A DNA stretch of 64,000 bases from an uncultured Verrucomicrobiota bacterium (GCA_964510645.1 CAZECJ010000002.1:11432-75431); one strand, 5' to 3'; positions 3,270 to 53,764 are shown, counted from the stretch's first letter. Numbers and translations are program-made. Notes: generated by a model not told the origin, from the letters alone.

Positions 3270-3651
3270 TCAGTCCCCGCTCCCGTAACGGCGTTGCCTA
3301 AGGCGGGCCGGCAGCCTCGCCCCATGAAGCGGCAAGCATAGCGGCGTCGTGCCGACGCTTTCCAAAAACATCTATCGCTTGGCTGGCGTCAGATGCGTTT
3401 GCCCGGGGTGGGTTACCCCCCATAGTCCCGGTCCGGGGGGGGGAGTAGGGTTTGTTGGGTGCAGTGGGTATCCATTCTCCCCGCCCCCTCTGGCAAACCG
3501 GGGGGAGAAAATGCGGACCTGCTTGGATCTTTGAATCGCAACCATAAAGCACGAGAAACAAATGAAGCCGGATCGATCCATCGAAGTAGACGGAAAATCG
3601 CCGCCGGCATGTTCATGGAGGTCGGCTTGGAATGGGGCGAATCGGATTTCC

Positions 3652-6600
3652 ATGGGACTGCTCTGGGCGGTCGCGATGGTTTTGTCGCTTCAAGAAGCCC
3701 CCGCGCAGATGGTCGATCTGGGTTCCGCCTCCGGGTTTGCCGTTCTGGCCGGCGCCGGGATCACCATCGGCGCTTCGGGCACGACCACGATCGCCGGGGA
3801 TATCGGGTCGTATCCCACCGCGACCATCACGGGCACGGAAAATCTGGACTTGGACGGGACCAACCACGGGGGCGATGCGGTCACGCAGGCCGCCAAAATC
3901 GATCTGGCCACGGCGTATGCCGATGCCGCCGGCCGCACCCCCACCACGACGTATCCGCCGATCTATGATCTGGGAGGACAGACCCTCGGCCCCGGCGTCT
4001 ACGACGATCCCAGTTCATTCGGGATCACCGGCATCCTGACGCTGGATGCCGGCGGCGACCCGGATGCGGTTTGGATCTTCCAGGCCGGGTCCACGCTCAT
4101 CACGGCCTCGGGCAGCCAGGTGGTGTTGATCAATGGCGCGCAGGCCGGCCGCGTTTTCTGGCAAGTGGGCACGTCGGCGACGCTCGGAACGGGCACGGAC
4201 TTCGCGGGAACTCTCTTGGCCTCCGCATCCATCACGCTGGCGGCCGGCGCATCGGTGGGGGGAAGCCTGTTGGCTCTGAATGGCGCCGTCACGTTGGACG
4301 ACAATGCGATCGCGCGGAGCGCCGACCTCGCCGTTCTCGGCGACCGGGCGTGGTTCGACGCCGACCGCGACGGCATTCAGGATGCAGGCGAGACCAACGG
4401 GGTTACCGGCGTGCCCGTGGCGCTGCTGGACGTCGATTCGAACGTGGTGGCTGCGACCACTACCGATGCCGGAGGCCACTACCTGTTCGCGAACCTGGCC
4501 GCGGGCGGCTATCGGGTGCGGTTCGACCTCTCCACGGTCACCACGAATGTAATCATCAGTTCCGCCGACCAGGGCGGCGACGACGCTCTCGACAGCGATG
4601 CGACCACCGGCGATACGGGCGGCTACGTCGGCACGGAACTCGTCTCCATCGGCGGGAGCGAGACCAACCGGAGCGTCGACCTGGGCCTGCGGGTGCGCGG
4701 CACGACCCGCGCGTCCCTCGCCGAAGTCTGGGGCGAGTGGAGCGGCGGCGCAGGGCGCGTCGTTTGGCAGACGAGTTCGGAGTGGGGAACGGCGGGATTC
4801 TTCGTCTACCGCGTCGATCCGGAGACGGGCGCGGAAACGCGCCTGAACGACGTGCTGGTGGCGTCGGCGTTCCGCGAGGCCGGCTCGGTCTACGAGCTGG
4901 AAGATCCGGCACCCCGGGAAGGCGGTGCGGCGACCTATCGGATCGAGGAAATCGAGCTGTCGGGCGGTTCGCTGGATCTGGGTACTCACGAGGTGGCATT
5001 TGCCGCGGCGCGGCCCCGGGCCAAAGCCGCGAAGGCGACGCTGTCGAAGGCGCTGCTGGCGCTGCCCAAGCTGGCGGGGCCGTCGCCGATCCTGAAAGTG
5101 CTCGTGCGCGACGAAGGCCTCTACGGCGTGGGGCTGCAAGCCATCGCCGAGGGGATGGGAACCGCGCTGGCGGACGCGCAGGCCCTGGCGGAGACGGAGT
5201 CACTGGAAATTTCAGAGCGGGGTACGCCGGTGCCGGTGCTCTATGACGCGGCGCGCGCGCGGCTCGTGTTCCATGGCGAGCCGACGGACGACTGGTACAC
5301 GCGTGACAACGCCTATTTGATTTCGGAAGGCGCGGGGCTCCCGATGCCGCGGCGCGAGCCCGGCGCGTCCTCCGGCGAATCGGTCTTTCCGGCGCAGGTG
5401 CGATTCGAACTGGATCGGTATCCGTTCGACATCGCCACGACCCGGCCCGAGGACTTCTACTACTGGGACTATGTCATCAGCGGTGCGACCAACGCGACTT
5501 CGCTGCGGGACTTTCCGCTGGATCTTGCGGGCGCGGCCGTCGCCGTCGCGCTGAAGGTGCGCCTGATGGGCTGGTCGAGCACGACCAACAACCCCGACCA
5601 CTTGGCGGAATTCCGTTTCAATGGAACCCGCGTGGGTTTGGTCTCCTTCGACGGGCAGGATTCCATCGAGACCGAGGTGTCCGTGCCCGTCGCGCTGGTT
5701 TCGAATGGCGCGAACGTGCTTTCCGTGAAGGGCGTGCTGCAGCCCGGACGCAGCCACAGCTATTTCGTGGTGGACTGGATCGAGGCGTCGTTCGCGCGCG
5801 CGCTGGTGCCGCGGGCCGGCACGGCGCACTTCGCGGCCGGCGGCGCGGCGGCGGTTTCGGCGGCGGCGTTTGCCGCTCCGTTGGCGCTGGCCCTGGACGG
5901 GGAGGGGCATCCGACGTGGATCGCAGATGAAAACGGCGAGCTGCCGGCCAAGTCGTGGACGGCGGCGGAAGCCGACAGGCGCTTCGCGGTCGTCGAGTCG
6001 GCTTCCGTTCCGATGCTGGTACCGGAATCGGTGAACGCCGATCCGTGGTTCCTGTCGGAAACGAACCGCATCGATTACCTTGTGCTCACGTCGCGCGCGC
6101 TGGAACCGGCGGCGCAGGAGCTGGCGGACTATCGCTCCGCTCAAGGGTTGCGCGTCGGCGTGGCGACCTTCGAAGACGTCTGCGACGGGATGGCCGGCGG
6201 CCTGCGCACGCCGGAAGCGATTCCGGAGCTGCTGGCCTATGCGGCCGCGACCTGGGCGGAAGCCCCGTGGATGGTGGTGCTGGCGGGCAACGGGCACTAC
6301 GACTATCTGGGCGCGCTGAGCAACGAGGTGAACCATGTGCCCCCGCTGATGCTCCAGACCCTCGCGGGGCTCTTCGCGGCGGACGGCTTGCTGGCGGACG
6401 CCACGGGAGACGGGGTGCCGGACGTCGCGATCGGCCGCCTGCCGGCGCGGACCGCGGCGGAGCTGACCGCGATGATCGCGAAGATTAGGGCCTACGAGGC
6501 TGCCTTTGGTTCGGCTTGGCAGAACGAGTTCGTCCTGGCGGCCGACGTCGCCGATGCGGCGGGCGACTTCTCGACGGCGAACGCGATCTTCGCCGCATTG

Positions 6601-7521
6601 GCGACGGCTCCGCATGCGGTGGTCGAGCGCATCGACCTGGACACGCAGGCGATCGCCTCGGCGCGCACGAACCTGATGAACCGGTTCAAGGCCGGAGCGG
6701 GCTTCATCCATTACACGGGCCATGGCGGAGTCAACAGCCTCAGCGCGCTCGGACTGCTGAAAGCGGCGGACGTCCAAGCGATGACCAACGTCCGCGCGCC
6801 GGTGGTGGTGACGCTGAGTTGCCTCGTCGGCCGCTTCGAAGCTCCGGCCGTGGACAGCCTGGGCGAATTGCTGATGCGCCAAACGCACGGCGGGGCGACG
6901 GCGGTCTGGAGTCCTTCGGGAATGTCCCTCAATCCGCCGGCGACGGAACTGGCCGAGGCGTTCTATCGCGCCGTCCTGCAGGAAGGTTCCGGTACGCTGG
7001 GGCTGGCGATCCTGCGGGCGCGCCGCGCGAGGCAGGCCAACTTCTTCACCCAGGACACCCTCGCCATCTACAACCTGCTGGGCGATCCGGCGCTGCGCAT
7101 CGCCGGCAACGTGGGCGGGCATTCCTCCGATGAAAGCTTCGCGCAATGGCGCTGGCAGCGGTTTTCACCGGAAGAACTGGCCGACCCTCAAACCAGCGGC
7201 GCGACGACGAACATCTTCTTCGACTACGCGATGGACGGTGGATACGAGGTGCTGGCCGAACGGCCCGAATTCGGCTTCGAGTTGCCGGAAGACGACGGGC
7301 CCGGATTCATCTTGCGCTGGAAGCGCCGGATCCTGCGCGCGGACGTCGAGTACCGCTTGTATGTTTCAGATGATCTGATACATTGGGAAGCAGAACCCGC
7401 CGACTTGGAGACCGTTGGCGTGGAGCCGGATGTGGATGGCGTGATGGAGACCGTTCGCACGCGGGTGGACCGCCCGCTGGCCGCGCGCGTTTTCGTGGTC
7501 GTCCGGGCCCGGAAAAAGTAG
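3652..7521 (+). CDS. Surface protein: DUF3494/ice-binding-like beta-helix + SdrD B-like repeat + peptidase C25 domain
   Basis: A signal-like 'MGLLWAVAMVLSLQEAPAQ' starts at ATG 3652; the ORF-track start 3562 is less likely. 'LGSASGFAVLAGAGITIGASGTTTIAGDIGS...FAGTLLASASITLAAGASVGGSLLALNGAVTL' is the DUF3494/ice-binding-like pattern. It is followed by 'DRDGIQDAGETN' and C25 motifs 'IHYTGHGG' and 'VVVTLSCLVG'. Confidence 0.75.
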   Translation: MGLLWAVAMVLSLQEAPAQMVDLGSASGFAVLAGAGITIGASGTTTIAGDIGSYPTATITGTENLDLDGTNHGGDAVTQAAKIDLATAYADAAGRTPTTTYPPIYDLGGQTLGPGVYDDPSSFGITGILTLDAGGDPDAVWIFQAGSTLITASGSQVVLINGAQAGRVFWQVGTSATLGTGTDFAGTLLASASITLAAGASVGGSLLALNGAVTLDDNAIARSADLAVLGDRAWFDADRDGIQDAGETNGVTGVPVALLDVDSNVVAATTTDAGGHYLFANLAAGGYRVRFDLSTVTTNVIISSADQGGDDALDSDATTGDTGGYVGTELVSIGGSETNRSVDLGLRVRGTTRASLAEVWGEWSGGAGRVVWQTSSEWGTAGFFVYRVDPETGAETRLNDVLVASAFREAGSVYELEDPAPREGGAATYRIEEIELSGGSLDLGTHEVAFAAARPRAKAAKATLSKALLALPKLAGPSPILKVLVRDEGLYGVGLQAIAEGMGTALADAQALAETESLEISERGTPVPVLYDAARARLVFHGEPTDDWYTRDNAYLISEGAGLPMPRREPGASSGESVFPAQVRFELDRYPFDIATTRPEDFYYWDYVISGATNATSLRDFPLDLAGAAVAVALKVRLMGWSSTTNNPDHLAEFRFNGTRVGLVSFDGQDSIETEVSVPVALVSNGANVLSVKGVLQPGRSHSYFVVDWIEASFARALVPRAGTAHFAAGGAAAVSAAAFAAPLALALDGEGHPTWIADENGELPAKSWTAAEADRRFAVVESASVPMLVPESVNADPWFLSETNRIDYLVLTSRALEPAAQELADYRSAQGLRVGVATFEDVCDGMAGGLRTPEAIPELLAYAAATWAEAPWMVVLAGNGHYDYLGALSNEVNHVPPLMLQTLAGLFAADGLLADATGDGVPDVAIGRLPARTAAELTAMIAKIRAYEAAFGSAWQNEFVLAADVADAAGDFSTANAIFAALATAPHAVVERIDLDTQAIASARTNLMNRFKAGAGFIHYTGHGGVNSLSALGLLKAADVQAMTNVRAPVVVTLSCLVGRFEAPAVDSLGELLMRQTHGGATAVWSPSGMSLNPPATELAEAFYRAVLQEGSGTLGLAILRARRARQANFFTQDTLAIYNLLGDPALRIAGNVGGHSSDESFAQWRWQRFSPEELADPQTSGATTNIFFDYAMDGGYEVLAERPEFGFELPEDDGPGFILRWKRRILRADVEYRLYVSDDLIHWEAEPADLETVGVEPDVDGVMETVRTRVDRPLAARVFVVVRARKK

Positions 7522-7578
7522 GGAGAGGCTGGTGAGGGTGCGAGTCGCGAAAAACGAGAGGCCCCGCGCGGCCGGGAA

Positions 7579-7651
7579 GTTTTCCATACCATGGAAAACG
7601 ATTCCGGTTTTTTTCCGCCCTGTGGAAAAAGATTTTCCACGCCGTGGAAAA
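7579..7651. repeat. Array of three copies of the TTTTCCAC-N3-GTGGAAAA palindrome (candidate operator array)
   Basis: The copies are GTTTTCCATaccATGGAAAAC (7579..7599), TTTTTCCGCCCTGTGGAAAAA (7610..7630) and TTTTCCACgccGTGGAAAA (7633..7651). Centre-to-centre spacings are 31 and 22 bp. The array ends 57 nt upstream of the PqqD ATG. Confidence 0.85.
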
Positions 7652-7707
7652 CCGACGGGCTGGGGCGAAAACGGGGCGGGAACGTGACCGCACCGAAGAC
7701 CTTTCGG

Positions 7708-7977
7708 ATGAAGGGCCGGGTGGTGCTGCGCCGAATCGGCGAGGACCGCCTGCTGGTGCCGGTATCGGGCGGCGCCGCGCGCGAGAACTGCGTGTTTCCC
7801 CTCAACGAAACGGGCGAATTCATCTGGAATTATCTGACGCAGGGCCGGACGCTGGACGAAACGGCGGCGGCGGTGGTCGCCGCGTTCGCCGTGGCTTTGG
7901 AAGAAGCGCTGCGCGATTGCCGCGGGTTCGCCGAAAAACTGGTGTCGCATGGGTTGCTCGAGGAGGGGCCGCCGTGA
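7708..7977 (+). CDS. PqqD-family peptide chaperone (RiPP recognition element)
   Basis: The 89-aa product 'MKGRVVLRRIGEDRLLVPVSG...FPLNETGEFIWNYLTQGRTLDETAAAVVAAF...FAEKLVSHGLL' has the typical PqqD layout. Its stop overlaps the next start (GTGA at 7974). ATG 7708 was chosen because the longer ORF-track start 7591 lies inside the palindrome array. Confidence 0.75.
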   Translation: MKGRVVLRRIGEDRLLVPVSGGAARENCVFPLNETGEFIWNYLTQGRTLDETAAAVVAAFAVALEEALRDCRGFAEKLVSHGLLEEGPP

Positions 7978-9077
7978 GCGGTTCGCCCGCCGAGATGGAG
8001 AGGACCGCCGCCCGCTGGACGGTCGATTTCCGCGCCCGAGCCGCGCAGGCGCGCCGGCCGATTTCCGCCACGCTGGAACTGACGCGGCGCTGCAACCTGC
8101 ATTGCGCCCACTGCTACCTCGGCGATCAGGCCGAACAGCACCGGCGGCGCGACCGCGAACTCGGTGCGGAGGCCGTGAAGGCGGCGCTCTCCGAATGGGC
8201 CGAGGCCGGCTGCCTGTACGTGCTGATCACGGGCGGCGAACCGCTGTTGCGCCCCGACTTCGCCGATGTCTACCGCCATGCGCGCGGGCTGGGGCTGGTG
8301 GTGACGGTCTTTTCCAATGGGACGCTCGTGGACGATGAAACCCTCGCGCTGTTTCGCGAACTGCCGCCGCGCCGGGTGGAGATCAGCCTCTACGGCGCGA
8401 CGGCGGAAGTCCACGACGCCGCCACCGGCGTGCCGGGTTCGCATGCGCGCGCCTGGGCCGGCATCCGCCGCCTGCACGCGGCGGGCGTGCGCGTCGGACT
8501 CAAGACCCTGCTGATGACGACCAATCTCCGCGAGTTCGCGGCCATGGAACGCCAAGCCCGGGATCTGGGCGTCCGCTTCCGCCACGATGCGGCGATCACC
8601 CCCTGCCTGCACGGTGGATCGCGCGCGCCGCTGGCGCTGCGCGTGTCGCCGGAAGAAGCGGTGCGGGCGGACATGGCGACGGCCGAGCGCCGTTCGACGT
8701 GGCGCGAGTCGATCGAGCAAGCCGCGGCGCGGCCCGAGGGGGATCGCCTCTATGGCTGTTCGGCCGGGCAGACCTTTTTCCACTGCGATCCGTTTGGCGG
8801 CCTGTCGCCGTGCCTCATGGCGGAGAGCGATCGCTGCGTTCCCGGCGGCCGCGCGTTCCGGGAAATCTGGAGCCGCGAGTTGGCGGCCATCCGCGGCCGG
8901 AAACGCACGCGGGCCGGCGGCAGCTTTTCCGGCGTTTTGCGCGGCGCGTGCGCGCATTGTCCGGCCTTCAACCGGGTGGAAACCGGTGACGAGGAAATGG
9001 AATCCGCTTACATGAAACAAACGACCCTGTTGCGTTACCAAGCGGCGATGACCCCCCCTGACGGAGAATGCCTATGA
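7974..9077 (+). CDS. Radical SAM peptide maturase (PqqE-like) with Cys-rich SPASM/twitch-like C-terminus
   Basis: 'LELTRRCNLHCAHCY' carries the CxxxCxxC motif and 'ITGGEPLLRPD' the GGE motif. The C-terminal Cys cluster is 'CSAGQTFFHCDPFGGLSPC...CAHCPAF'. GTG 7974 overlaps the PqqD stop; ATG 7995 is an alternative start. Confidence 0.85.
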   Translation: MSGSPAEMERTAARWTVDFRARAAQARRPISATLELTRRCNLHCAHCYLGDQAEQHRRRDRELGAEAVKAALSEWAEAGCLYVLITGGEPLLRPDFADVYRHARGLGLVVTVFSNGTLVDDETLALFRELPPRRVEISLYGATAEVHDAATGVPGSHARAWAGIRRLHAAGVRVGLKTLLMTTNLREFAAMERQARDLGVRFRHDAAITPCLHGGSRAPLALRVSPEEAVRADMATAERRSTWRESIEQAAARPEGDRLYGCSAGQTFFHCDPFGGLSPCLMAESDRCVPGGRAFREIWSRELAAIRGRKRTRAGGSFSGVLRGACAHCPAFNRVETGDEEMESAYMKQTTLLRYQAAMTPPDGECL

Positions 9078-9256
9078 ATCCCCAACCCGAACGTCAACCC
9101 TCCCCGAACGAAGACCGGCCCGTCCGCCGCCCGTACGAGAAGCCCGCGATCCAGCGGGTGGACCTGGCGCTGGCGGAAACCTTGGGCAGCGGCTGCAAAC
9201 TGGACGGCGAATGCAACATGCCGCCCATCAACATCCGGGACGAGGTAGGCTCCTGA
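9074..9256 (+). CDS. Candidate precursor peptide (60 aa), PqqA-like leader, two Cys, C-terminal Ser
   Basis: Its ATG overlaps the rSAM stop (ATGA); ATG 9068 is an alternative start. Third-position GC is high, like the neighbouring genes. The sequence is MNPQPERQPSPNEDRPVRRPYEKPAIQRVDLALAETLGSGCKLDGECNMPPINIRDEVGS. Confidence 0.5.
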   Translation: MNPQPERQPSPNEDRPVRRPYEKPAIQRVDLALAETLGSGCKLDGECNMPPINIRDEVGS

Positions 9257-42542: not shown

Positions 42543-42619
42543 GCGTCCGTAGCTCAATTGGACAGAGCTTCTGACTTCGGATCAGAAGGTTACAGGTTCG
42601 AGTCCTGTCGGACGCGCCA
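42543..42619 (+). tRNA. tRNA-Arg (anticodon TCG), CCA encoded
   Basis: The acceptor stem is GCGTCCG/CGGACGC and the D arm GCTC-AATTGGAC-AGAGC. The anticodon arm is TCTGA-CTTCGGA-TCAGA with TCG at positions 34-36. The T arm is ACAGG-TTCGAGT-CCTGT, followed by discriminator G and CCA. Confidence 0.92.
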
Positions 42620-43874: not shown

Positions 43875-44726
43875 TCAGTAATTCACGTATCCGTAATCCT
43901 GCACCCAGCGCGGGCCCCAGTTGTCGGTAGAATTGTAATATCCAAACCCGGCGTGCCGCATGGAGCTGTTCAGGATGTTGGCTTGATGTCCGGCGCTGGC
44001 CCACCAGGCGTTCATGACGGCGGCCACGGTGGTATAGCCATAGGCGATGTTTTCGCAAAATCCATAGCTGCTCCAACCTGCGCCCCGATAGCCCGCGGCC
44101 AGGATCCGCAGCGTCATCGTCATGTTGGCCGCCGTGCTGCCGTGGTGATCGGCGCCGCCATAGTAGTGCTTGGCCGCCATGTCGTAGGCGTAGTTCTGGG
44201 CGGCGGTATTAAGCTGGGAATTCTGGGTCACCGGCACCCGGCCATATTGGCTGCGGTAATAGTTGACGCGGCTCAGCATGTCCGACCGCCAGTCGTACGT
44301 GGTTTGGTGCGTGGTGGTGATCCGGAAGCAGGCCATGTAGTTCCGGTAGGCGTAGAGTTTGACGTAATAGCGGCCGGGCGTCGGATTCGAGATCTGGATC
44401 GTTTCGACGTAGCTGTTGCCGGCCGACCGCCGGGAGTAGGAGGTGAAGCTGGGCCAACCTCCGAACTTCAGATACAGATCGACGTCTCCAAAGCCGCAGT
44501 GGCCATCATTCAGGGTTTGCACCGTGAGGCTGGCGCAGTTGGCGCCAACGTCGAAGGAGTAGCCCCCCAGCCAGACGCCGTTCCCGTTCAGGAAACTCCA
44601 CCGCCCTTGGGTCGATCGCACGTAATGGCCGTTGAAGGTGCCCCACAGCGGCGCCGCCGAGGCCGTCATCATGGACAACAAGAACAAACCCGCTGCTATC
44701 CATCCCAGTCGTCGCATCGTTTTCAT
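43875..44726 (-). CDS. Secreted PPC (pre-peptidase C-terminal-like) + CAP/SCP/PR-1 domain protein
   Basis: A signal peptide 'WIAAGLFLLSMMTASAAP' is present. 'DVDLYLKFGGWPS...PGRYYVKLYAYRNY' is PPC-like. 'LSRVNYYRSQYGRVPVTQNSQLNTAAQNYAYDMA...NIAYGYTTVAAVMNAWWASAGHQANILNSSMRHAGFG' is CAP-like. The gene is visibly AT-richer than its neighbours. Confidence 0.7.
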   Translation of the reverse strand: MKTMRRLGWIAAGLFLLSMMTASAAPLWGTFNGHYVRSTQGRWSFLNGNGVWLGGYSFDVGANCASLTVQTLNDGHCGFGDVDLYLKFGGWPSFTSYSRRSAGNSYVETIQISNPTPGRYYVKLYAYRNYMACFRITTTHQTTYDWRSDMLSRVNYYRSQYGRVPVTQNSQLNTAAQNYAYDMAAKHYYGGADHHGSTAANMTMTLRILAAGYRGAGWSSYGFCENIAYGYTTVAAVMNAWWASAGHQANILNSSMRHAGFGYYNSTDNWGPRWVQDYGYVNY

Positions 44727-45168
44727 GATCCTGCCCTTTCTCGTCGCATATTCGAATTTCCATGGGGAAGCTTGCCGCCCGCGCCTTTCGGTTCATCTCG
44801 CCTTCATCTAGAAAATGAACCGGTTCATAACGGGTGTCAATGCCGAGCGGGGCATCGAACGATAAATTCACGTTTGGGTCTTGGCGGGTGGGCGAAGGCG
44901 GGTTGGTGCGGCGATCGGCGGCAATGCGGCCGCCGTTGCGGAGGGGCGATTCCCTTCGGCCTTGGGGGTGAACGAAATGCGGCGCGGCGAGATCACGGCT
45001 TTCCGGCGGCTGGGCGTGGCTCGGCTGGGGGCTCGGCTGGGCGTGGCTCGGCTTGACTCAAACCGCCGACAGGTGGCATTCTGCGTCGGTTTAGGTTAAC
45101 CGGGTTTCCGGCGCTTGCGGCAGCTCCGCGGCAACGGAATCCTTGGAATTCCAGGAAGTGACGGCAAC

Positions 45169-46854
45169 ATGAAAATCGGTTTGGGCTCGGATCACGGCGG
45201 CTTCGAAATGAAGCAGAAGATCAAGGATCTGCTGGCGAAGCGCGCGGGCGTGGAGGTCACGGATTTCGGCACGTACAGTCCGGAATCGGTGGATTATCCC
45301 GATTTCGCGGTCGAGGTGTCGCGCCGGGTGTCGGAAGGCGCGCTGGAACAGGGCATCCTGATTTGCACGACGGGCGTCGGCATGAGCATGACGGCGAACA
45401 AGTTCCCGCGGGTGCGCGCGGCTCAGGTGTTCACCGCGAAGATGTCCCGCATGGCGCGGGAGCACAACAACGCCAACGTCCTGGTTCTCGGCGCGGCCGT
45501 GACGCCGCTGGAGGAGATCCCGGCGATCCTCGACGCATGGTTCGCGGCGGAATTCGAGCCGGGGTCGCGCCACGACCGGCGGGTCCAGAAAATCAACGCG
45601 TGCACGCTGCGGGTGACGGAACCCGAGGCGATCCACGAGCGCGACACGGAGATCTACGCGGCGATCCAGGGCGAAGCGAAGCGCCAGCGGCAGAACATCG
45701 AGCTGATCGCGTCGGAGAACTACGTGAGCCGGGCGGTGCGCGAGGCGCAGGGTTCGGTGCTGACGAACAAGTACGCGGAAGGCTATCCCGGCAAGCGTTA
45801 CTACAATGGGTGCGAATTCGTGGACGAGGCGGAGCGCCTGGCCATCGAGCGGGCGAAGCAGCTGTTCGGGGCCGAGCACGCGAACGTGCAGCCGCACAGC
45901 GGCAGCGGCGCGAACATGGCGGTCTATTTCGCGATGCTGCAGCCGGGCGACACGATCCTGGCGATGAGCCTCGCCGCCGGCGGGCACCTGACGCACGGCC
46001 ACAAGCTGAATTTCTCGGGCCGGTTCTTCAACGTGGTGCCCTACGGGGTGGATCCGGGAACGGAGCGCATCGACTACGACGCCATCGAAAAGCTGGCGGC
46101 CGAGCACAAGCCGCGGATGATCTGCGCGGGAGCGAGCGCCTATTCGCGCATCATCGACTTCAAGCGCCTGCGGGCGATCGCCGATTCCGTCGGGGCGCTG
46201 CTGATGGTGGACATGGCGCACATCGCGGGGCTGGTGGCGGCGGGATTCCATCCGAGCCCGGTGCCCTACGCCGATTTCGCGACGACGACGACGCACAAGA
46301 CGCTGCGCGGGCCGCGCGGCGGCCTGATCCTGTGCAAGGAGGCCTTCGCGGCGGACGTCGACAAGCAGGTCTTCCCCGGCATCCAGGGCGGGCCGCTGAT
46401 GCACGTGATCGCGGCGAAGGCGGTGTGCTTCCTGGAAGCCCTGCAGCCGTCGTTCAAGGAATACGCGCGGCAGATCGTCGCCAATGCGCAGACGCTGGCC
46501 GCCGAACTGGAAAAGGCGGGCCTCCGCATCGTCTCGGGCGGGACGGACAACCACCTCATGCTGGCGGATTTGACGCCGCTGGGCGTGACGGGCAAGGACG
46601 CCGCCACGGCGCTCGACCAGGCGCTCATCACCGTGAACAAGAACGCGATTCCCTTCGACAAGCAGAAGCCGTTCGTGACTTCCGGCATCCGACTCGGCAC
46701 GCCGGCCGTCACCACGCGCGGAATGAAGGAGAAGGAAATGGCCCAGATCGCCGCGTGGATCGGCCAGATCGTGGCCAAGCCGGCCGACGAAAAGCTGCAA
46801 CTGCGCATCCAGGACGAGGTCATCGCCTTTACCGAGAAGTTCCCCGTTCCGTAA
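45169..46854 (+). CDS. glyA: Fusion protein: ribose-5-phosphate isomerase B (RpiB/LacAB) + serine hydroxymethyltransferase
   Basis: The N-terminal ~145 aa, '[22 protein letters not shown]...[24 protein letters not shown]...VLVLGA', match RpiB. The rest, '[46 protein letters not shown]...[14 protein letters not shown]', matches SHMT including the PLP-Lys motif. The frame is single with no internal stop. Confidence 0.9.
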
Positions 46855-46883: not shown

Positions 46884-46918
46884 CGGGGCCGGGAGAAATC
46901 CCGGCCCCGATTTGTTTT
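46884..46918 (+). terminator. Rho-independent terminator of rpiB-glyA
   Basis: An 11-bp GC stem CGGGGCCGGGA / TCCCGGCCCCG with a GAAA loop is followed by ATTTGTTTT. It lies 30 nt after the stop, between convergent genes. Confidence 0.75.
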
Positions 46919-46920
46919 CC

Positions 46921-47589
46921 TCAAACCGGCGGCGTGCGGAGCGAAAAGGTGCGGCGGGCGTCGCAATAGAGAACGGCGTGGGCGGCGGCGCGGGCGCCGG
47001 AGGCATAGCGGGGATAGTCGCGAAGATTGCTCTGCAGGAAGAGGTCGATGGCCTTTTCGAGGGTACAGCCGCGTTCGCGCAGGTCGCGGGTCAGGCGGAC
47101 GTTGAGCTGGGTGCGCCAGTGGGCTTCGACGAGGATCAGGCGGTCGAGACAAGGGCGGACGGCTTCGTGCGCGGCGATTTCGCCGTCGGCAAGGAGAATG
47201 CGGGCGGCGGACACGCGAATTTCGCGGGCGGCCTGGCCGGCGACGGGGTCGAAGACGGGCTGGCGGATGGAGCGGCCTTTCCGGAAATCGGCGAGGGTCT
47301 TCCGGAGGCGGAGCAGATCGTTGGCTTCAGGGTGGGACCCGTAGCGTCCGTGGGCCGACCGCTGGGCGCGCGGCAGGCGGAAGTCGTCCAGGGACAGGAT
47401 GCGGGCGTCGGGCAGATGGTGGCGGAGCCAGCGGGAAAGCGTGCTTTTGCCGCAGCCGCCGGGCCCGCCGATGCCGATCACGAGGGGTGCCGGCGCGGCG
47501 GCAACTTCGCGCTCGAGCCACGCTTCGATTTCCCGGAAACAGTTCCGGCTGGCGGCGTTCAAATGGCTGGGACAAGTGGTCGGGATCAT
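46921..47589 (-). CDS. P-loop kinase of the uridine kinase/phosphoribulokinase family
   Basis: 'PLVIGIGGPGGCGKSTLSRWL...ILSLDDF...PVFDPV...ILLADGEIA' matches the PRK/Udk-type layout. Confidence 0.55.
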   Translation of the reverse strand: MIPTTCPSHLNAASRNCFREIEAWLEREVAAAPAPLVIGIGGPGGCGKSTLSRWLRHHLPDARILSLDDFRLPRAQRSAHGRYGSHPEANDLLRLRKTLADFRKGRSIRQPVFDPVAGQAAREIRVSAARILLADGEIAAHEAVRPCLDRLILVEAHWRTQLNVRLTRDLRERGCTLEKAIDLFLQSNLRDYPRYASGARAAAHAVLYCDARRTFSLRTPPV

Positions 47590-47661
47590 GGGGTTCGGAT
47601 TTTTCCGTTGCGGCGCGATTTCCCGGATCGGGCGACCCGGGCGGTCGGGCGCCGGGCCGGT

Positions 47662-48417
47662 TCAAGCCTGGCCGCGGCTGATCTTCTGGGCGAGGTCCAT
47701 CACTTCGGCGGGGGTCAGGACCGGGGGGTCGAAGCAGCGGTCGTTGATGAAGCGGATGGCGTCGCGGGTCAGGAAGACGCGGTCCTTGGAATTGGAGATC
47801 TGAAGATTCGCGAAGGTATGGGTGAAAACGGCGAGGGCGTAGATGTGATCCTCGGGGACCTTGGCGGCGAGGAGGGTGATGAACATGCGGCGCTGGCGCT
47901 CGCACTGCTGGACGGGGCTTTTGACGGACAGCGAGGTCCCGTTGGATTTGGTCTGCGTCCACTGGGCGTCGTTCGCGTCGCCGCTCAGTTTGCCGGCCCA
48001 AAACTTGGATTCGACAATGTAGATGCCGGAAGGAGCGATGACGAGATGGTCGATCTGGCAACGTTCGTGCGCGATTTGGAATGCGAGGTCGTTCAGGATG
48101 ACGTGGTCGTCGGCGAGTTGCTCGGCGAGGAGGTTGGCCATCTTCTGCTCGCCGCGCCGGCCGCCATCGATGCGATAGATTTCGCGGGCGATTTCGCGAA
48201 GATGGACCTCGTAGCCGGCTCCGAGGACGGCCACCACGGCGCCCACGACGATGCCGGTAAACGTCCCGCTTTGGATCGTCGCGACAATCCCCCAGATGGC
48301 CACGGCGAGAACGGATCCCCAGACGGCGAAGCGCGTGATTTGCCGCCGGCCCAGTTCGCGCTGGATGGCCTCCTGCTGGCGGAGAAGGCTGGTTTCGTTG
48401 CGCAGGATCTTGGCCAC
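47662..48417 (-). CDS. Membrane-anchored NERD-domain protein (paralog A)
   Basis: Two predicted TM segments ('FAVWGSVLAVAIWGIVATI', 'GIVVGAVVAVLGAG') are present. The NERD pattern is 'GRRGEQKMANLLAEQLADDHVILNDLAF...CQIDHLVIAPSGIYIVESKFWAGKLSG...WTQ'. The start is GTG, preceded by GGGGAG. Confidence 0.7.
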   Translation of the reverse strand: MAKILRNETSLLRQQEAIQRELGRRQITRFAVWGSVLAVAIWGIVATIQSGTFTGIVVGAVVAVLGAGYEVHLREIAREIYRIDGGRRGEQKMANLLAEQLADDHVILNDLAFQIAHERCQIDHLVIAPSGIYIVESKFWAGKLSGDANDAQWTQTKSNGTSLSVKSPVQQCERQRRMFITLLAAKVPEDHIYALAVFTHTFANLQISNSKDRVFLTRDAIRFINDRCFDPPVLTPAEVMDLAQKISRGQA

Positions 48418-48439
48418 GCGGATCTCCCCGGAAAGGGGA

Positions 48440-49216
48440 TCAGGCCTCGGCGACGTGCTGGTTCAGGCCGTTGGCGAGTTTATCGACTTCCGCGTTGGAC
48501 AGGACAGGCTTTTTGAAGCAGAAATCGTTGATGAAAGTGACGGTCTGCTCGGGGGTGAGCACGCGGCGCTCGGTATTGGTGACCTGGATTTCGGCGTTCG
48601 GATTGGCCAAGACGACGACGGAAAAGACATGTTCCCAGATCAGATTGGTGCCCTTGAGCCAGTTGCAGAGGATGCGCCGTTCGCGCAGGACCTTGCCGAT
48701 CGGATTGCGGACAGGGCGGATCTTGCCGTCGGGCGCGCGGATTTTCCAGGTATAGGCGTGTTTGCCGGTGTCGCCGACGATCTTGCCGTCCCAGTTGAGG
48801 GTGTTGAGCACGAACATGCCGGAAGGCGCGACGACGAGATGGTCGATCCAGCACTTTTCCCGGCCAACGACGAGGTGCAGGTCGTTGAGCACGTAATGGT
48901 CGTTGGCGAGCTTTTCATCCAGCAAGCGGGCGACCTCGCCCTTGGCTTCACGAATGCTGGCGGTGTCGACCTGATCCCGCATCTGTTCCCGGCGCCGAGC
49001 CTCGTGACCGAAGGCCAAGAAGGCCAAGGCGCCGCCGATGAACAGGACGAAGGCGGCGGACGAGTGGCCCAGGTTCTTCAGGAAGAAGCCGACGGCCAGG
49101 AAAAGAGCTGCGGCGCCCCATTCAATGAGGCGCATGCTCTTGAGAATGCGCAGGTCGCGCTCGATGGATTCCTGGCGTTCGCGGAGATTGCTTTCGCTGG
49201 TGAGTGTTTTAGCCAT
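48440..49216 (-). CDS. Membrane-anchored NERD-domain protein (paralog B)
   Basis: The architecture is the same as the downstream gene: 'MAKTLTSESNLRERQESIERDL', two TM segments, 'AKGEVARLLDEKLANDHYVLNDLHL...CWIDHLVVAPSGMFVLNTLNWDGKIVG'. A GGGAGA RBS is present. Confidence 0.7.
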   Translation of the reverse strand: MAKTLTSESNLRERQESIERDLRILKSMRLIEWGAAALFLAVGFFLKNLGHSSAAFVLFIGGALAFLAFGHEARRREQMRDQVDTASIREAKGEVARLLDEKLANDHYVLNDLHLVVGREKCWIDHLVVAPSGMFVLNTLNWDGKIVGDTGKHAYTWKIRAPDGKIRPVRNPIGKVLRERRILCNWLKGTNLIWEHVFSVVVLANPNAEIQVTNTERRVLTPEQTVTFINDFCFKKPVLSNAEVDKLANGLNQHVAEA

Positions 49217-49255
49217 GGGAATCTCCCAAATGGGGGTTGCGGATGATTCTGACGA

Positions 49256-51349
49256 TCAAAAGGCCGGAGCTACGGGGGTTGCCGGAGCGACAGCCGGGGC
49301 GGGGGCCACCGCGGGGGCCGGTGCAACCGCAGCCGGGGCGGCCGTTGCCACCGGGGGTGCCGAAACGACCGCAGGGGCTGCCGCGGGCGCCGGCGCGACG
49401 GCCGGTGCCGGGGCCGCCTCAGGGGCCGGTGCAACCGCAACCGGGGCGGCCGTCTCCACCGGGGGCGCCGAAACGACCGCAGGGGCTGCCGCGGGCGCCG
49501 GCGCGACGGCCGGGGCGGGGGCCACCGCCGGGGCCGGTGCAACCGCAGCCGGGGCGGCGGCGACGGGATCGGCGGTGACTTCGCCGATGGCGATGGTCCG
49601 GCTGCGCTCCGTGATGCGGACGTTGACGGCTTGGCCGACGGTGGTAGCGCCCTTCACGAAAATCACGAAGCCGTCGATCTTGGCGACGCCTTCGGTGGTC
49701 GGGTTCTTCTCGGAGGGCTCCACGATGGTCGTCGCGATCACGGCGCCGGGGACGACGTGGGGCGCGGAATCGCCGGGGCCGGGGACGTAGTTGCGCGGGG
49801 CGCGGGGCGCCGGCGCCGCATAGACAGGCAGGGGCTCGGTGCCGGCGGGCTTGCCCGTGGGCATGGCGGTCGCCACGCGTTCGCGGCGCTCGACGATGCG
49901 GACGTTGACGCGCTCGCCGATGGTGGTCGCGCCGTTCACGAAGACGACGAGGCCGCCGATCTTGGCGACGCCGTCGGTCAGGGGATTCTTCTCCGAGGCT
50001 TCGGCGATGACGACGTCCATTTCGGCGCCGGCCACGACGTGGGCGGTGGGATCGCCCGCGGGCGGCACGTAGGCGGCGCGCGGGGCGCGGGGCGCCGGCG
50101 CCGCATAGACGGGCAGGGGCTCGGTGCCGGCGGGCTTGCCGGTGAGTTCGGCGAAAGCCATGCGCTCGCGACGGTCGGTGATGCGGACATTGACGCGCTC
50201 GCCGACGGTGGTCGCGCCGTTCACGAAGACGACGAGGCCGGCGACCTTGGCGACGCCTTCGGTGGTCGGGTTCTTTTCCGAGGCTTCGGCGATGACGACG
50301 TCCATTTCGGCGCCGGGGATGACGTGGCCGGCGGAATCGCCGGGAGGCGGCACGAAGGCGGCGCGCGGGGCGCGGGCCGGCATCGCATAGGTGGGCAGGG
50401 GCTCGGTGCCGGCGGGTTTGCCCGTGGGCTCGGCGAAGGCGATGCGTTCGAGGCGCTCGACGATGCGGACGTTGACGCGCTCGCCGATGGTCGGCACGCC
50501 TTTCACGGAGACCACGAGGCCGCCGATCCGGGCGATGCCCTCGGCGTAGGGATTCTTCTCGGAGGGTTCGGAGACGACGACGTCCATCTCGGCGCCGACG
50601 ATGACCGGATCTCCGGCCGGGGGAACGTAGGCGGCGCGGGGCGCGCGGCCCGGCATCGCATAGGTGGGCAGCGGATCGGTGCCGGCGGGTTTGCCCGTGG
50701 GCTCGGCGAAGGCCATGCGCTCGCGGCGCTCGGTGATGCGGACGTTGACGCGCTCGCCGATGGTGGGTACGCCGTTCACGAAGACGATGAGACCGGCGAC
50801 TTTGGCCACGCCTTCGGTTTCGGGATTCTTGGAGGAGGCCTCGGTAATGATCACGTCCATCTCGGCGCCGGGGATGACGTGGCCGGCGGAATCGCCGGGC
50901 TGGGGCACGAAGGCGGCGCGGGGCGGCTTCGGGGGCAGGGCTACTTCGGAGAGCACGTCGATGAGGATGGCGTCGACCACGCGTTCGCGCACGCGGGTGA
51001 CGTCCACGATGGCGGTCATTCCCCGGCGGGCGGCGGGGATAAACGTGGTCATGCGGCCGATCTTGGCGATGCCGGAGGAGCGGTCGTCGCTTTCGTCGTC
51101 CACGTAGACCTTGTAGCGGTATCCCAGTTGCGGAAGGATGGGGTCGCCGCCGGTGGCGTCGATGATGCCGCCGGTGTTGATCGCGGTCGCGCCGGCCTGT
51201 CCTTCGCCCACGACGACGGTGACGACGGATTTCTCCTTGCTTTTCGTGGCGAAGATGGCGGCAACCACGAGGGCGATGCCCAAGATGGGCAGGAGGATCA
51301 GCGCGGCGGTTCGCAGGGGACTGCTGGAGGCAGGGGCGGGATCATTCAT
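49256..51349 (-). CDS. Membrane-anchored protein with six tandem TRAM-like domains and Ala/Pro-rich C-terminal tail
   Basis: An N-terminal TM segment 'AALILLPILGIALVVAAIFA' is followed by KSKEK. Five near-identical units carry 'PGAEMDVVI.E.SEKNP..EGVAK..GLVVFVNG..T.GERVNVRI..R.ER.AFAE' (the pattern of stand-alone TRAM proteins). One degenerate N-terminal unit precedes them. The tail is '(APAPAVAPAPA...)n'. AAGGAG lies 7 nt upstream of the ATG. Confidence 0.75.
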   Translation of the reverse strand: MNDPAPASSSPLRTAALILLPILGIALVVAAIFATKSKEKSVVTVVVGEGQAGATAINTGGIIDATGGDPILPQLGYRYKVYVDDESDDRSSGIAKIGRMTTFIPAARRGMTAIVDVTRVRERVVDAILIDVLSEVALPPKPPRAAFVPQPGDSAGHVIPGAEMDVIITEASSKNPETEGVAKVAGLIVFVNGVPTIGERVNVRITERRERMAFAEPTGKPAGTDPLPTYAMPGRAPRAAYVPPAGDPVIVGAEMDVVVSEPSEKNPYAEGIARIGGLVVSVKGVPTIGERVNVRIVERLERIAFAEPTGKPAGTEPLPTYAMPARAPRAAFVPPPGDSAGHVIPGAEMDVVIAEASEKNPTTEGVAKVAGLVVFVNGATTVGERVNVRITDRRERMAFAELTGKPAGTEPLPVYAAPAPRAPRAAYVPPAGDPTAHVVAGAEMDVVIAEASEKNPLTDGVAKIGGLVVFVNGATTIGERVNVRIVERRERVATAMPTGKPAGTEPLPVYAAPAPRAPRNYVPGPGDSAPHVVPGAVIATTIVEPSEKNPTTEGVAKIDGFVIFVKGATTVGQAVNVRITERSRTIAIGEVTADPVAAAPAAVAPAPAVAPAPAVAPAPAAAPAVVSAPPVETAAPVAVAPAPEAAPAPAVAPAPAAAPAVVSAPPVATAAPAAVAPAPAVAPAPAVAPATPVAPAF
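49314..49560. repeat. 108-bp tandem repeat (~2.3 copies) encoding the Ala/Pro-rich tail
   Basis: The unit starts with GGGGCCGGTGCAACCGCA at 49314, 49422 and 49530, read directly from the sequence. Confidence 0.85.
49600..50950. repeat. ~273-285-bp tandem repeat (about 5 copies) encoding the TRAM units
   Basis: The landmark CGCATAG(A/G) recurs at 49817, 50102, 50384 and 50657, giving periods of 285, 282 and 273 bp. The flanking GGCAGGGGCTCGGTGCCGGCGGG(C/T)TTGCC is conserved. Confidence 0.8.
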
Positions 51350-51486
51350 CGGACGACTCCTTATAGTTTATAAACCGTACACGATAGGGCTAACCGGGAC
51401 TTTTACAAGGATAAAGAACGCGCGCAACGGTCTGCGAGGGAACGTCGGCCGGCATCCGGAAAATCGAACTTCATCGCGCGTGGCTT

Positions 51487-52074
51487 TCAGGGCGTTCGGT
51501 ACAGGACTTCCATTTCGATGTTGGTGTACGCCGCCAGGAACTGCTTCATCACGTTCCAGCAACTGGGGCAGGGGTACAGTTCCGTGAACAGCAGCATGCG
51601 CCCCCCCGCCGCCGTGTCCGGCAGCCGCGCCGCCATGTCCTCGATGATTTTATATTCGGTGTCCACGTCGCGTTGCCAGCAGTCGAAGCCTTCCACCGCT
51701 TCGTCCTGGTTGACGCAGAGGGTCTTGAAGCGGCTGGCCGCGGGTTTGAGCGATATTTCCGCGATCGCGGCCTGGGCCTCGGTCGACAGGCCCTCGAAAT
51801 CCTGGATGCCGCTGTGGGCGAAAAACTCCCGCTTGTCCAGGCCGTCGATCTTCGCGATCGCCCAGGCAAAATTGTTGCGCTGCTGAAATTGCACGGGCAG
51901 CTTCTGGCGGACGAACTCGATTCGCTTCAGGACGGCGGCATCCTTGGCCGGATCGATCTGCCGCAATCCGGGATCGCGGGTGGGCGGCGGCGGCGGCGGG
52001 ACGGTATACCCTTGTGCAAAACCTGAAAGCGCGAAGGCCAAGAGGATCCAAAATGCAAAACCAAATTTGTTCAT
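51487..52074 (-). CDS. Secreted cytidine/nucleic-acid-deaminase-fold protein (atypical D-x-E ... P-C-x-x-C)
   Basis: The signal peptide is 'MNKFGFAFWILLAFALSGFAQG', followed by a poly-Pro linker. 'NFAWAIAKIDGLDKREFFAHSG' forms a beta-hairpin ending in SG, as in toxin-type deaminases. 'DTEYKIIEDM' sits where H-A-E normally is. 'LLFTELYPCPSCWNVMKQF' is a PCxxC zinc motif about 28 aa later. Confidence 0.45.
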   Translation of the reverse strand: MNKFGFAFWILLAFALSGFAQGYTVPPPPPPTRDPGLRQIDPAKDAAVLKRIEFVRQKLPVQFQQRNNFAWAIAKIDGLDKREFFAHSGIQDFEGLSTEAQAAIAEISLKPAASRFKTLCVNQDEAVEGFDCWQRDVDTEYKIIEDMAARLPDTAAGGRMLLFTELYPCPSCWNVMKQFLAAYTNIEMEVLYRTP

Positions 52075-52191
52075 TCGAACTTCTTCCATGGCGGGGGGGG
52101 AAGCCATTTGCGATCTTCTTCACTCTTCAACTAAAATTCTGATTCTACGCAGGTCGTTGGGCTTCTGCAAGGAATATGCGCGGGGAATCGC

Positions 52192-52218: not shown

Positions 52219-52264
52219 AGGAAACGTCGCGCGGGAAAATCGGTTTACCCGCCGGCAGGTGAGG

Positions 52265-53764
52265 ATGACCATGAGGCTGCAGGAAAGACAACGGTGGGCG
52301 CGGGAACGCATCGTGCCCGCGGAGATCGGGAAATATCTGCGCGCGGACGGCTCGGATTTCGTCAACGACGCGGAGATTTTCCGTCTGCTGCAGGAAACCG
52401 GCGAGCCCGCGGCGGCGCAGGTGCGCGACGTCGTCGCGAAGGCGCTGGCGGTGCAGACCCTTTCGCAGGCGGAAGTGGCGACGCTGCTGCGCGTGCGCGA
52501 TCCGGGGCTGTGGGACGAGATGCGCGCGGCAGCCGGCGCCATCAAGCGCAAGGTGTACGACAACCGCATCGTGACGTTCGCCCCGCTCTACCTGAGCAGC
52601 AAGTGCGTGAACAACTGCGTCTATTGCGGCCTGCGCAGCTCGAACGACGCCGTGGAACGGCGCGTGCTGGCGATGGACGCCGTGCGCGCCGAAACCGAGG
52701 CGCTGGCCGGCAAGCTGGGCCACAAGCGCTTGATCGTGGTCTACGGCGAGCATCCGGAATCGGGCGTGGACTACATCGCCGAAAGCATCCGCGCGGTCTA
52801 TTCCGTGAAGGTGCAGACGCGCCGGGGCGTCGGCCAGATCCGCCGCGTGAACGTGAACGCCGCGCCGATGCGCGTGGCGGAGCTGAAGGTTCTGCACGAA
52901 TGCGGGCTGGGCACCTACCAGGTGTTCCAGGAGACCTACGACCGGCGCGCCTACGCGCAGCTGCATCCGGCGGGGACGATCAAGGGCGACTTCCGCTGGC
53001 GGCTGACGGCCATGCACCGCGCGCAGGACGCGGGCATCGACGACAACGGCATCGGCATCCTCTGCGGCCTGTCCGACTGGCGCTTCGAGCTGCTGGCGCA
53101 GCAGGCGCACGTGCACGAAATGGAGCGCTTCTGCGGCATCGGCCCGCATACGCTGTCCTTCCCGCGCCTCGAGCCCGCCGTCAACACGCCGTTCCTCGAG
53201 CAACCGGCCTGGCGCGTCAGCGACGCCGATTTCGAGCGCATCGTGGTGCTGGCGCGGCTGGCCGTGCCGTATGCGGGCCTGATCATCACCGCGCGCGAAT
53301 CGCCGGAGATGCGCCGGCGCCTGCTGCCGCTGGGCGTGACGCAGATGGACGCCGCCTCGAACGTCGGCGTCGGCGCCTACGCCGACGGGCAGGAAAAGCA
53401 AAAGGGCGAGCGCCAGCAGTTCATCCTGGGCGACCCGCGCGGCCTCGACGAGGTCGTGCGCGAGTGGGCCGGCTTGGGCTGCATCACCAGCTTCTGCACC
53501 GCGGGCTACCGCTGCGGGCGCACGGGCAAGTGCATCATGGACCTCCTGCGCAGCGGCGCCGAGGGCAAGTTCTGCAAGCTCAACGCCGTGCTGACCTTCA
53601 AGGAATGGCTCGACGACTTCGCCACGCCCGAAACCCAGGCCGTCGGGGAGGCGCTGCTGCAAAAGGAACTCGCCGAGGTGCGCCGGACCCAGCCGAAGAT
53701 CTGGCCGGCGTTCTGGGCGAACTACGAACGCACCGCCGCCGGCGAGCGCGATCTCTACTTCTAG
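52265..53764 (+). CDS. hydG: Radical SAM tyrosine-lyase family protein, HydG-like (ThiH/HydG)
   Basis: 'KRKVYDNRIVTFAPLYLSSKCVNNCVYCGLRSSN' is the HydG/ThiH CxxxCxxC context. The N-terminal 'DAEIFRLLQE...' is present. The C-terminal 'ITSFCTAGYRCGRTGKCIMDL' resembles the HydG auxiliary-cluster region (canonical 'SFCTACYR'). Confidence 0.65.
   Translation: MTMRLQERQRWARERIVPAEIGKYLRADGSDFVNDAEIFRLLQETGEPAAAQVRDVVAKALAVQTLSQAEVATLLRVRDPGLWDEMRAAAGAIKRKVYDNRIVTFAPLYLSSKCVNNCVYCGLRSSNDAVERRVLAMDAVRAETEALAGKLGHKRLIVVYGEHPESGVDYIAESIRAVYSVKVQTRRGVGQIRRVNVNAAPMRVAELKVLHECGLGTYQVFQETYDRRAYAQLHPAGTIKGDFRWRLTAMHRAQDAGIDDNGIGILCGLSDWRFELLAQQAHVHEMERFCGIGPHTLSFPRLEPAVNTPFLEQPAWRVSDADFERIVVLARLAVPYAGLIITARESPEMRRRLLPLGVTQMDAASNVGVGAYADGQEKQKGERQQFILGDPRGLDEVVREWAGLGCITSFCTAGYRCGRTGKCIMDLLRSGAEGKFCKLNAVLTFKEWLDDFATPETQAVGEALLQKELAEVRRTQPKIWPAFWANYERTAAGERDLYF

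Follow-up and report, generated by a model that had tools for sequence, protein, structure and literature searches.

The 64,000-nucleotide (nt) stretch of DNA from an uncultured Verrucomicrobiota bacterium analysed here (GCA_964510645.1, CAZECJ010000002.1:11432-75431; hereafter the window) carries five adjacent open reading frames (ORFs) on its minus strand, between two genes on the plus strand. Comparison with related loci shows that this five-gene region is a composite: one three-gene operon, encoding a TRAM-domain protein and two nuclease-related (NERD) domain proteins that we call NERD-A and NERD-B, and two unrelated neighbours, a deaminase gene and a kinase gene. The features of the locus, by position in the window, are as follows.

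45115-46854, plus strand: rpiB-glyA fusion gene, flanking the five minus-strand ORFs on the kinase side
46884-46909: terminator hairpin of glyA
46921-47589, minus strand: PRK/Udk-like kinase gene, 222 amino acids (aa)
47662-48417, minus strand: NERD-B gene (third core gene), 251 aa, GTG start
48440-49216, minus strand: NERD-A gene (second core gene), 258 aa
49256-51349, minus strand: TRAM protein gene (first core gene), 697 aa
51350-51486, minus strand: intergenic region between the deaminase and TRAM genes, with a promoter-like block and a Shine-Dalgarno (SD) sequence
51487-52074, minus strand: BURPS668_1122-type deaminase gene, 195 aa from the conserved Met; a longer reading extends to 52107
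52108-52137: promoter-like site of the HydG-like gene
about 52250-53764, plus strand: HydG-like radical-SAM gene, flanking the five ORFs on the deaminase side

A sequence-only reading of this DNA had taken the five ORFs as a single module compatible with a stress or anti-phage function. Much of what it described at the locus can be confirmed. The genes share a strand, with gaps of 39, 22, and 72 nt as given, and only the first gap differs (137 nt, not 138 nt). SD-like motifs precede all three internal starts (AAGGAG 7 nt 5' of the TRAM ATG, GGGAGA before NERD-A, and GGGGAGA before the GTG of NERD-B), the glyA terminator and the promoter-like site of the HydG-like gene can both be located, and all five domain assignments are matched by Pfam families above the gathering score. 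The proposed membrane tethering of three proteins agrees with a transmembrane (TM) segment in the TRAM protein, a TM hairpin in NERD-B, and a matching hydrophobic pattern in NERD-A. The composition also corresponds to no described system: PADLOC gave no system match, and no paper in the literature library searched combines "NERD domain" and "TRAM domain". The module itself stands in part. TRAM, NERD-A, and NERD-B form a conserved, co-transcribed-looking unit, whereas the deaminase and kinase genes do not co-occur with it elsewhere, apart from the few loci described below; the same reading had named a lack of co-occurrence in other genomes as evidence against a module, and this is what we find for two of its five genes.

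NERD-B matches the Pfam NERD family (PF08378; cut-off, 22.1 bits) at 84.7 bits (E = 8.1e-24) and NERD-A at 58 bits (E = 1.6e-15). The catalytic set of NERD-B, Glu90, Asp123, Glu136, and Lys138, is invariant together with His124 in 94 of 94 sequences (codons at 48004-48150), and the E/D/ExK residues are also kept in single-NERD relatives. An AlphaFold2 (AF2) model with a predicted local distance difference test score (pLDDT) of 86 consists of a short N-terminal helix, a TM hairpin (helices at residues 25-50 and 54-100) whose second helix reaches into the cytoplasm, and an alpha/beta nuclease domain. Both flanks of the hairpin are rich in Arg and Lys, placing the nuclease domain in the cytoplasm. 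A Foldseek search of the PDB returned the PD-(D/E)xK domains of Cdn1, Can2, and Card1, followed by VC1899, Bax1, R2 endonuclease, and Hjc, all as weak matches (E = 2e-3 to 0.1; TM score about 0.3) with no close solved relative among them. A PDB search by sequence gave only chance matches, to spore photoproduct lyase (E about 0.6). With its fold and catalytic residues intact, NERD-B is predicted to be a PD-(D/E)xK endonuclease.

NERD-A has an N-terminal helix and a hairpin hydrophobic pattern like those of NERD-B. At its ExK position, however, NERD-A has [N/D/H]-T-[L/M/V], and all 30 distinct orthologues lack the Lys (Asn138-Thr-Leu140 in the window, codons 48797-48805). The Asp-His is kept, and many other columns are invariant across the 30 orthologues, including long stretches such as GREKCWIDHLVVAPSG. 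Loss of the ExK Lys combined with strong constraint elsewhere suggests that NERD-A is a dead paralog, probably serving as a non-catalytic partner.

The TRAM protein matches PF01938 in five stretches (E = 2.3e-41; 139.9 bits against a cut-off of 21). The NCBIfam PyTRAM model recognizes six, and six repeats are also visible by eye. A single TM segment near the N terminus (about residues 14-35) is followed by six TRAM domains with Pro-rich linkers between them and then by a tail of 103 aa rich in Ala and Pro. Two arrays found by Tandem Repeats Finder underlie this architecture.

49604-50920, minus strand: 282-nt tandem repeat (Tandem Repeats Finder), 4.7 copies, 80% matches, covering TRAM repeats 2-6 and their linkers
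49281-49558, minus strand: 108-nt repeat, 2.6 copies with 90% matches, which encodes the C-terminal tail rich in Ala and Pro

The 282-nt unit is the source of the variation in TRAM number among orthologues (3-6 overall and 4-6 per protein in the window's clade), and the length of the tail is not conserved either (2-103 aa). Three loci with identical NERD-B, L001, L002, and L003 (at 7300-9180), carry TRAM genes with 5, 6, and 4 repeats (520, 615, and 430 aa), a difference due either to a real polymorphism in the number of 282-nt units or to repeat collapse in assembly.

Related loci (numbered with the prefix L) were gathered by exact look-up, a scan of species-representative genomes, and tblastn of the window proteins against all loci; as these are pattern- and word-based searches, absences are not countable, and the flanks extend 8-10 kb. 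More than 120 clusters are homologous to NERD-B. Almost all are about 251 aa long and 57-82% identical, and their source names point to Kiritimatiellia-type metagenome-assembled genomes (MAGs). Restriction to Kiritimatiellia is to be read with the MAG submitter names on which it is based, which are inconsistent (Kiritimatiellia, Verrucomicrobia, Lentisphaerae, Opitutae, or Spartobacteria). In a library-wide hidden Markov model (HMM) search, about 55-60 representative clusters matched NERD-B end to end, followed by a continuum of other small TM-NERD proteins, and the NERD domain itself is widespread (about 21,800 representative clusters).

The order TM-TRAM, NERD-A, NERD-B is constant wherever a related locus includes sufficient upstream DNA (about 27 distinct sets). 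The core is present throughout the clade rather than patchily, its proteins being 47-87% identical. Upstream usually lies a divergent HydG-like/metA/gpsA block, replaced by hisB/hisH/hisA in one sub-lineage, and the downstream flank varies (glyA, thiamine genes, a PHP protein, a DTW protein, or a DUF1538 gene with a 377-aa gene). Relative to the window, the identity of NERD-B rises and falls with that of the HydG-like neighbour (Spearman correlation, 0.88; n = 18), as well as that of NERD-A (0.91) and the TRAM protein (0.78). Constant synteny and co-divergence with the HydG-like gene suggest that the three genes are a vertically inherited, core-genome-like operon.

This operon appears to keep its own promoter. 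Within the 137-nt gap 5' of the TRAM gene lies a promoter-like block (TTGTAA at 51408-51403, a 16-nt spacer, and TATCGT at 51386-51381) followed by the SD sequence AAGGAG (51362-51357), with a weak terminator-like hairpin at 51436-51423. The gap can be aligned to the regions upstream of TRAM in relatives lacking the deaminase gene; these regions share a TTGCCG-17-TATCTT-like block and AAGGAG. Conservation of this block with or without the deaminase suggests that core transcription starts downstream of the deaminase gene, at a putative promoter.

A second form of the system was found in a sister clade, whose contexts were collected by exact look-ups and a metagenome scan with custom TRAM, NERD, and ComEC profiles. 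Locus L043 encodes three TRAM domains and a single NERD with an intact ExK, 32-34% identical to the window version, and a search with this NERD identified a second NERD family of about 251 aa, also named Kiritimatiellia. In 9-10 distinct loci of this clade (28-34% identity to the window NERDs), genes for a TM protein with three TRAM domains, the NERD, two small proteins (s1 and s2), and ComEC form a block. The block is tight, with 4-nt overlaps and 3-nt gaps, and its flanks differ (MetRS, XthA plus SNase, or a 2222-aa surface protein). s1 (72 aa) has two TM segments and the motif GV.YLLPC, and s2 (62-69 aa) has one TM segment and starts with MERGAKA; neither has a Pfam match.

L052 6753-7163, L054 6753-7189, and L043 about 8795-9160: s1 and s2, always between NERD and ComEC
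L043 9175-12612, L052 7167-10649, and L054 7179-10490: sister-clade ComEC genes

The sister-clade ComECs are unusually long (1100-1160 aa) and match Pfam DUF4131 and Competence. In three of them, the metallo-beta-lactamase motif HxHxDH reads S-[PA]-[LR]-P-E-R (SPLPER, SARPER, and SPRPER), and Pfam Lactamase_B is sub-threshold or absent, so ComEC's own nuclease looks dead. In L054, genes for an ExoIII-like EEP nuclease and an SNase-like nuclease with a signal peptide (3446-5055) lie directly upstream of the block, a single instance that fits a DNA-processing neighbourhood. More distant TM-NERD loci at 32% identity or less (L061 and L065-L135, from the metagenome scan) have neither TRAM nor ComEC adjoining and were set aside as other NERD families.

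Since TRAM and NERD are common to both clades, the TRAM-NERD pair is the conserved kernel of the system. The arrangement of three TRAM domains and one active NERD with ComEC is probably ancestral. In the window's clade, the NERD would then have been duplicated into a live and a dead copy, the TRAM array enlarged, and the link to comEC lost.

Taken together, these observations lead us to propose, with a probability of roughly 40%, that the three proteins form a complex, tethered to the membrane and inherited vertically, which captures single-stranded nucleic acid, cuts it, and was ancestrally coupled to ComEC DNA import. The TRAM array, made of OB-like domains, would hold the strand at the inner membrane, and NERD-B would cleave it as a PD-(D/E)xK endonuclease. 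NERD-A would be a structural or regulatory partner of NERD-B, probably in a heterodimer formed through the TM hairpins and N-terminal helices. The ComEC operon of the sister clade makes imported DNA the most likely substrate, for example, single-stranded DNA (ssDNA) arriving at the cytoplasmic face on the ComEC route, which might be destined for recombination, nutrition, or destruction. Complex formation, topology, substrate, and biological role are all inferred here. The three-gene operon thus appears to be an undescribed variant among membrane-anchored NERD nuclease systems, with a plausible tie to DNA uptake.

Known uptake systems offer partial parallels. In the sister clade, a TM nucleic-acid-binding protein and small genes precede comEC, as ComEA does in the comEA-comEB-comEC operon of Bacillus subtilis; there, the binding module is a helix-hairpin-helix instead of TRAM, and the window cassette, unlike the ComE operons, is not beside comEC. 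Dedicated PD-(D/E)xK endonucleases also have a precedent in YraN and CoiA, which serve natural transformation (bioRxiv 10.1101/2024.02.06.579203) and are soluble, whereas the NERD proteins are membrane anchored. A bolder version of the proposal, which we regard as speculative and rather doubtful, holds that TM-TRAM, the TM-hairpin NERD, s1, and s2 are unrecognised accessory subunits of a Kiritimatiellota ComEC import machine. TRAM would act as ratchet or receptor and NERD would replace the lost ComEC nuclease, and the window's clade would later have become comEC independent, with a live/dead NERD heterodimer and a larger TRAM array. The strand-holding or receptor role is elsewhere played by ComEA or by ComFA/SSB. 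We know of no competence phenotype in Kiritimatiellia and of no competence genetics in the Planctomycetes-Verrucomicrobia-Chlamydiae (PVC) superphylum.

Several points weigh against coupling of the window operon to DNA import or against a complex acting on one face of the membrane. ComEC, s1, and s2 were found neither in the window (tblastn for ComEC) nor within 8-10 kb of any double-NERD cassette, making the ComEC link indirect for this locus. The strand-degrading step of DNA uptake is extracytoplasmic, whereas the NERD domain is predicted to face the cytoplasm. Flank charges leave the topology of the TRAM protein ambiguous (Lys/Arg 1.9 on the N side and 2.75 on the C side, a difference cancelled by the N-terminal amine); were the TRAM domains periplasmic and the NERDs cytoplasmic, a simple one-face capture-and-cut complex would be unworkable. 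To our knowledge, TRAM is an RNA-binding domain in every characterised context, as in RumA/RlmD, MiaB, and the archaeal TRAM chaperones, and the best NCBIfam match of the window repeats is indeed "TRAM domain-containing RNA chaperone", the archaeal family. Gene order can be retained within a class even where no functional link exists, and the relatives all come from MAGs or metagenome contigs. Further, RNase behaviour is described for both of the NERD proteins that have been studied by biochemistry or genetics (PMC12702573; bioRxiv 10.64898/2026.04.06.716636), and our literature search found no experimental study of any member of the present family. Exact-sequence look-ups returned no record, whether for the NERD-B and TRAM proteins of the window or for P0001, which is 100% identical.

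Some of these points favour an alternative that we consider possible, if on the unlikely side: membrane-associated RNA processing or decay. The TRAM protein would bind RNA (tRNA, rRNA, or mRNA), NERD-B would be an endoribonuclease, and NERD-A a dead scaffold or substrate-presenting partner, together forming a lineage-specific counterpart of membrane-tethered RNases. Beyond the RNA-binding record of TRAM and the RNA chaperone match, the nearest solved folds include Can2 and Card1, which are reported to cut RNA as well as DNA, and core-genome-like vertical inheritance suits a housekeeping RNA function. The closest parallel is TbLrRP1/TbLrRP2, which process large-subunit (LSU) rRNA in Trypanosoma brucei: TbLrRP2 is a TM-anchored NERD protein with essential conserved charged residues, is needed for rRNA cleavage, and forms a heterodimer with another membrane-anchored protein, a partner that works without its catalytic motif, in a lineage-specific housekeeping rather than defence role (PMC12702573). 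That partner has a DEDDh fold and is not a dead NERD paralog, no TRAM protein is involved, and the anchors are single TM segments (C-terminal in TbLrRP2) in the eukaryotic endoplasmic reticulum and nuclear envelope, as opposed to the N-terminal hairpin seen here; the likeness is one of described features. Similarly, ZwsA (Zowangsin) is a NERD RNA endonuclease that has identical E/D/ExK residues and combines its catalytic domain with an S4 RNA-binding module (bioRxiv 10.64898/2026.04.06.716636). Against an RNA function, ComEC and two small membrane proteins are the sole additional partners found to be conserved in the family, with no RNA-metabolism gene among them, and Rfam finds no RNA gene or known RNA element at the locus. 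RNA binding by the window repeats would follow from family membership, and ssDNA binding is also compatible with their sequence, which does not separate the two.

A non-nucleolytic role at the membrane, in which TRAM and NERD would be interaction modules of an envelope or division scaffold, is improbable. SmdA of Staphylococcus aureus sets the example: it is a clade-restricted, conserved, membrane-anchored NERD protein facing the cytoplasm; cell morphology and division depend on it, and no nuclease function was shown (bioRxiv 10.1101/2021.11.23.469651). The window cassette is likewise a conserved, vertically inherited, lineage-specific set of membrane proteins, and its Pro/Ala-rich linkers and tail resemble envelope-spanning spacers. 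SmdA, however, has one TM helix, is without several of the canonical NERD catalytic residues, and is encoded by a monocistronic gene with no TRAM partner. The invariance of the catalytic residues in all 94 NERD-B sequences makes a scaffold less likely, one active and one dead copy are typical of enzymes and not of scaffolds, and the ComEC linkage indicates nucleic acid.

Defence against phage or other foreign nucleic acid, with the three proteins acting as a membrane sensor and effector nuclease that destroys phage RNA or DNA, is less probable again. NERD domains do occur in PglW, MAD6, and MkoA, the source of partial matches, and in ZwsA, and a membrane-posted nuclease could intercept entering nucleic acid. 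The PADLOC-DB v2 matches, though, are limited to the bare NERD domain: no system was matched, the hits covered only the NERD portion of PglW, MkoA, and a NERD+UvrD model (E = 3e-8 to 1e-2; about 100 positions in profiles of more than 500), and the deaminase and TRAM protein matched nothing. PHROGs gave no phage-family assignment beyond bare domains. Among 72,556 plasmids and 50,697 phage records there was no full-length relative, NERD-domain-only matches reaching 24-29% identity. Around the cassette, the related loci examined show no recurring integrase, transposase, or other defence gene. Its fixed position beside HydG-like, metA, and gpsA, its co-divergence with the HydG-like gene, its clade-wide presence, and the placement of the sister clade in a ComEC operon all speak for a different role, and we found no evidence favouring the stress or anti-phage function first suggested. 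ZwsA itself is a single soluble VHS-DUF647-NERD-S4 effector against RNA phages from Pseudomonas defence loci, whereas the binding module here is a separate TM protein with TRAM repeats, inherited vertically and outside any defence context.

The NERD domain is widespread yet hardly studied, and its few characterised members are split among defence, the processing of rRNA, and cell division. By pairing live and dead membrane NERDs with tandem TRAM domains, the operon offers a natural system in which to ask what NERD cuts, why it is tethered to the membrane, and what a dead paralog adds. The ComEC linkage of the sister clade gives a testable hypothesis on the cytoplasmic-membrane partners of the DNA-uptake channel, a step poorly understood outside Firmicutes. 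The locus also carries a caution: same-strand adjacency of nucleic-acid-related genes mimicked a "defence module", which comparative genomics separates into one operon and two bystanders.

The first bystander, the deaminase, matches Toxin-deaminase (PF14424; E = 3.6e-30, 105.5 bits against a cut-off of 29.6). Its RxxDxExK (R-DVD-TEYK) and PCxxC motifs are intact, with Arg135, Asp138, Glu140, Lys142, Cys169, and Cys172 invariant in 47 sequences. The combination of RxxDxExK and CxxC is the signature of the BURPS668_1122 clade (Iyer et al. 2011; PMC3239186), which the window protein also resembles in scoring above the PF14424 gathering threshold and in being truncated after helix 3. An AF2 model (pLDDT 88) has APOBEC3 structures as its best, distant Foldseek matches (E about 1e-2). 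It differs from that clade in being a stand-alone, exported protein of 195 aa with no toxin-delivery domain and no adjoining immunity gene; no ORF of more than 23 aa lies wholly inside the 137-nt downstream gap. A Sec-type signal peptide is present, and the homologues share the start Met, some with a lipobox. They form a uniform orthologous family of 190- to 220-aa exported proteins (Sec or lipoprotein signals), 52-98% identical across Kiritimatiellia. The absence of a delivery domain and an immunity gene and the uniformity of the family rule out a classical polymorphic toxin; the family is one of conserved periplasmic or lipoprotein "toxin" deaminases without an immunity gene.

The deaminase is a neighbour and not a core component. 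It adjoins the TRAM gene only in the nearest relatives (L047-L049; 88-98% identity) and the cassettes of more than 25 other loci lack it. Deeper relatives have it at the end of a phosphorelay operon, after genes for an SBP_bac_3-HisKA sensor, a response regulator (RR), an RR-HisKA protein, and an RR-SpoIIE (PP2C) protein.

L050 1598-8600, L051, and L028 10514-16150: phosphorelay-deaminase operons

The L028 deaminase gene is on the strand opposite the cassette, 1.8 kb away from it. The L050 operon is preceded by a gene for a CNT-type nucleoside transporter, and in L050 and L051 the gene after the deaminase encodes an 883-aa GEVED protein.

The second bystander, the kinase, matches PRK (PF00485; E = 3.8e-15, 56.7 bits against a cut-off of 22) and has the Walker A motif GPGGCGKS. 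It falls below every NCBIfam equivalog cut-off (69 vs 236 for PRK and 54 vs 180 for Udk), as a divergent member of the PRK/Udk family. The gene occurs in just three other loci (L020, L030, and L035), each time abutting glyA. Being tied to glyA and absent from most loci, it is ruled out as a cassette member by synteny. Directly 3' of NERD-B, other loci have a conserved pair of genes, for a DUF1538 membrane protein (672 aa) and a 377-aa protein without a Pfam match (L047 14324-17472; also L020, L021, L029, and L035). In L020 and L035 the pair separates the kinase from NERD-B, and in L021, L029, and L047 it is present and the kinase absent. The kinase therefore abuts NERD-B in the window because the pair is missing there.

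Joint action of all five genes is accordingly hardly credible: against the shared strand, short gaps, nucleic-acid- or nucleotide-related folds, the recurrence of deaminase, TRAM, NERD, and NERD adjacency in L047 and L049, and the nearby L028 orthologue stand the many cassettes without a deaminase and its deeper sensor kinase/response regulator/PP2C context, its export while the NERDs face the cytoplasm, the tie of the kinase to glyA and its replacement by the DUF1538 pair in L047, and the promoter-like block retained by the TRAM gene. Local rearrangement may have placed both genes beside the core operon.

Three further observations concern the surroundings. The only Rfam match across the 64-kb window is a tRNA gene (42543-42616, plus strand), distant from the locus. 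At 43875-44726 (minus strand) lies the gene for a 283-aa protein with an N-terminal signal-like segment, whose L047 counterpart (279 aa, beyond glyA) has PPC and CAP (SCP/PR-1-like) domains. Finally, in the 579-aa rpiB-glyA ORF, an N-terminal RpiB (LacAB_rpiB) domain is fused to glyA, and this RpiB-serine hydroxymethyltransferase (SHMT) fusion is conserved in the clade, with 561-aa orthologues that have the identical Pfam pair and are 86-95% identical.

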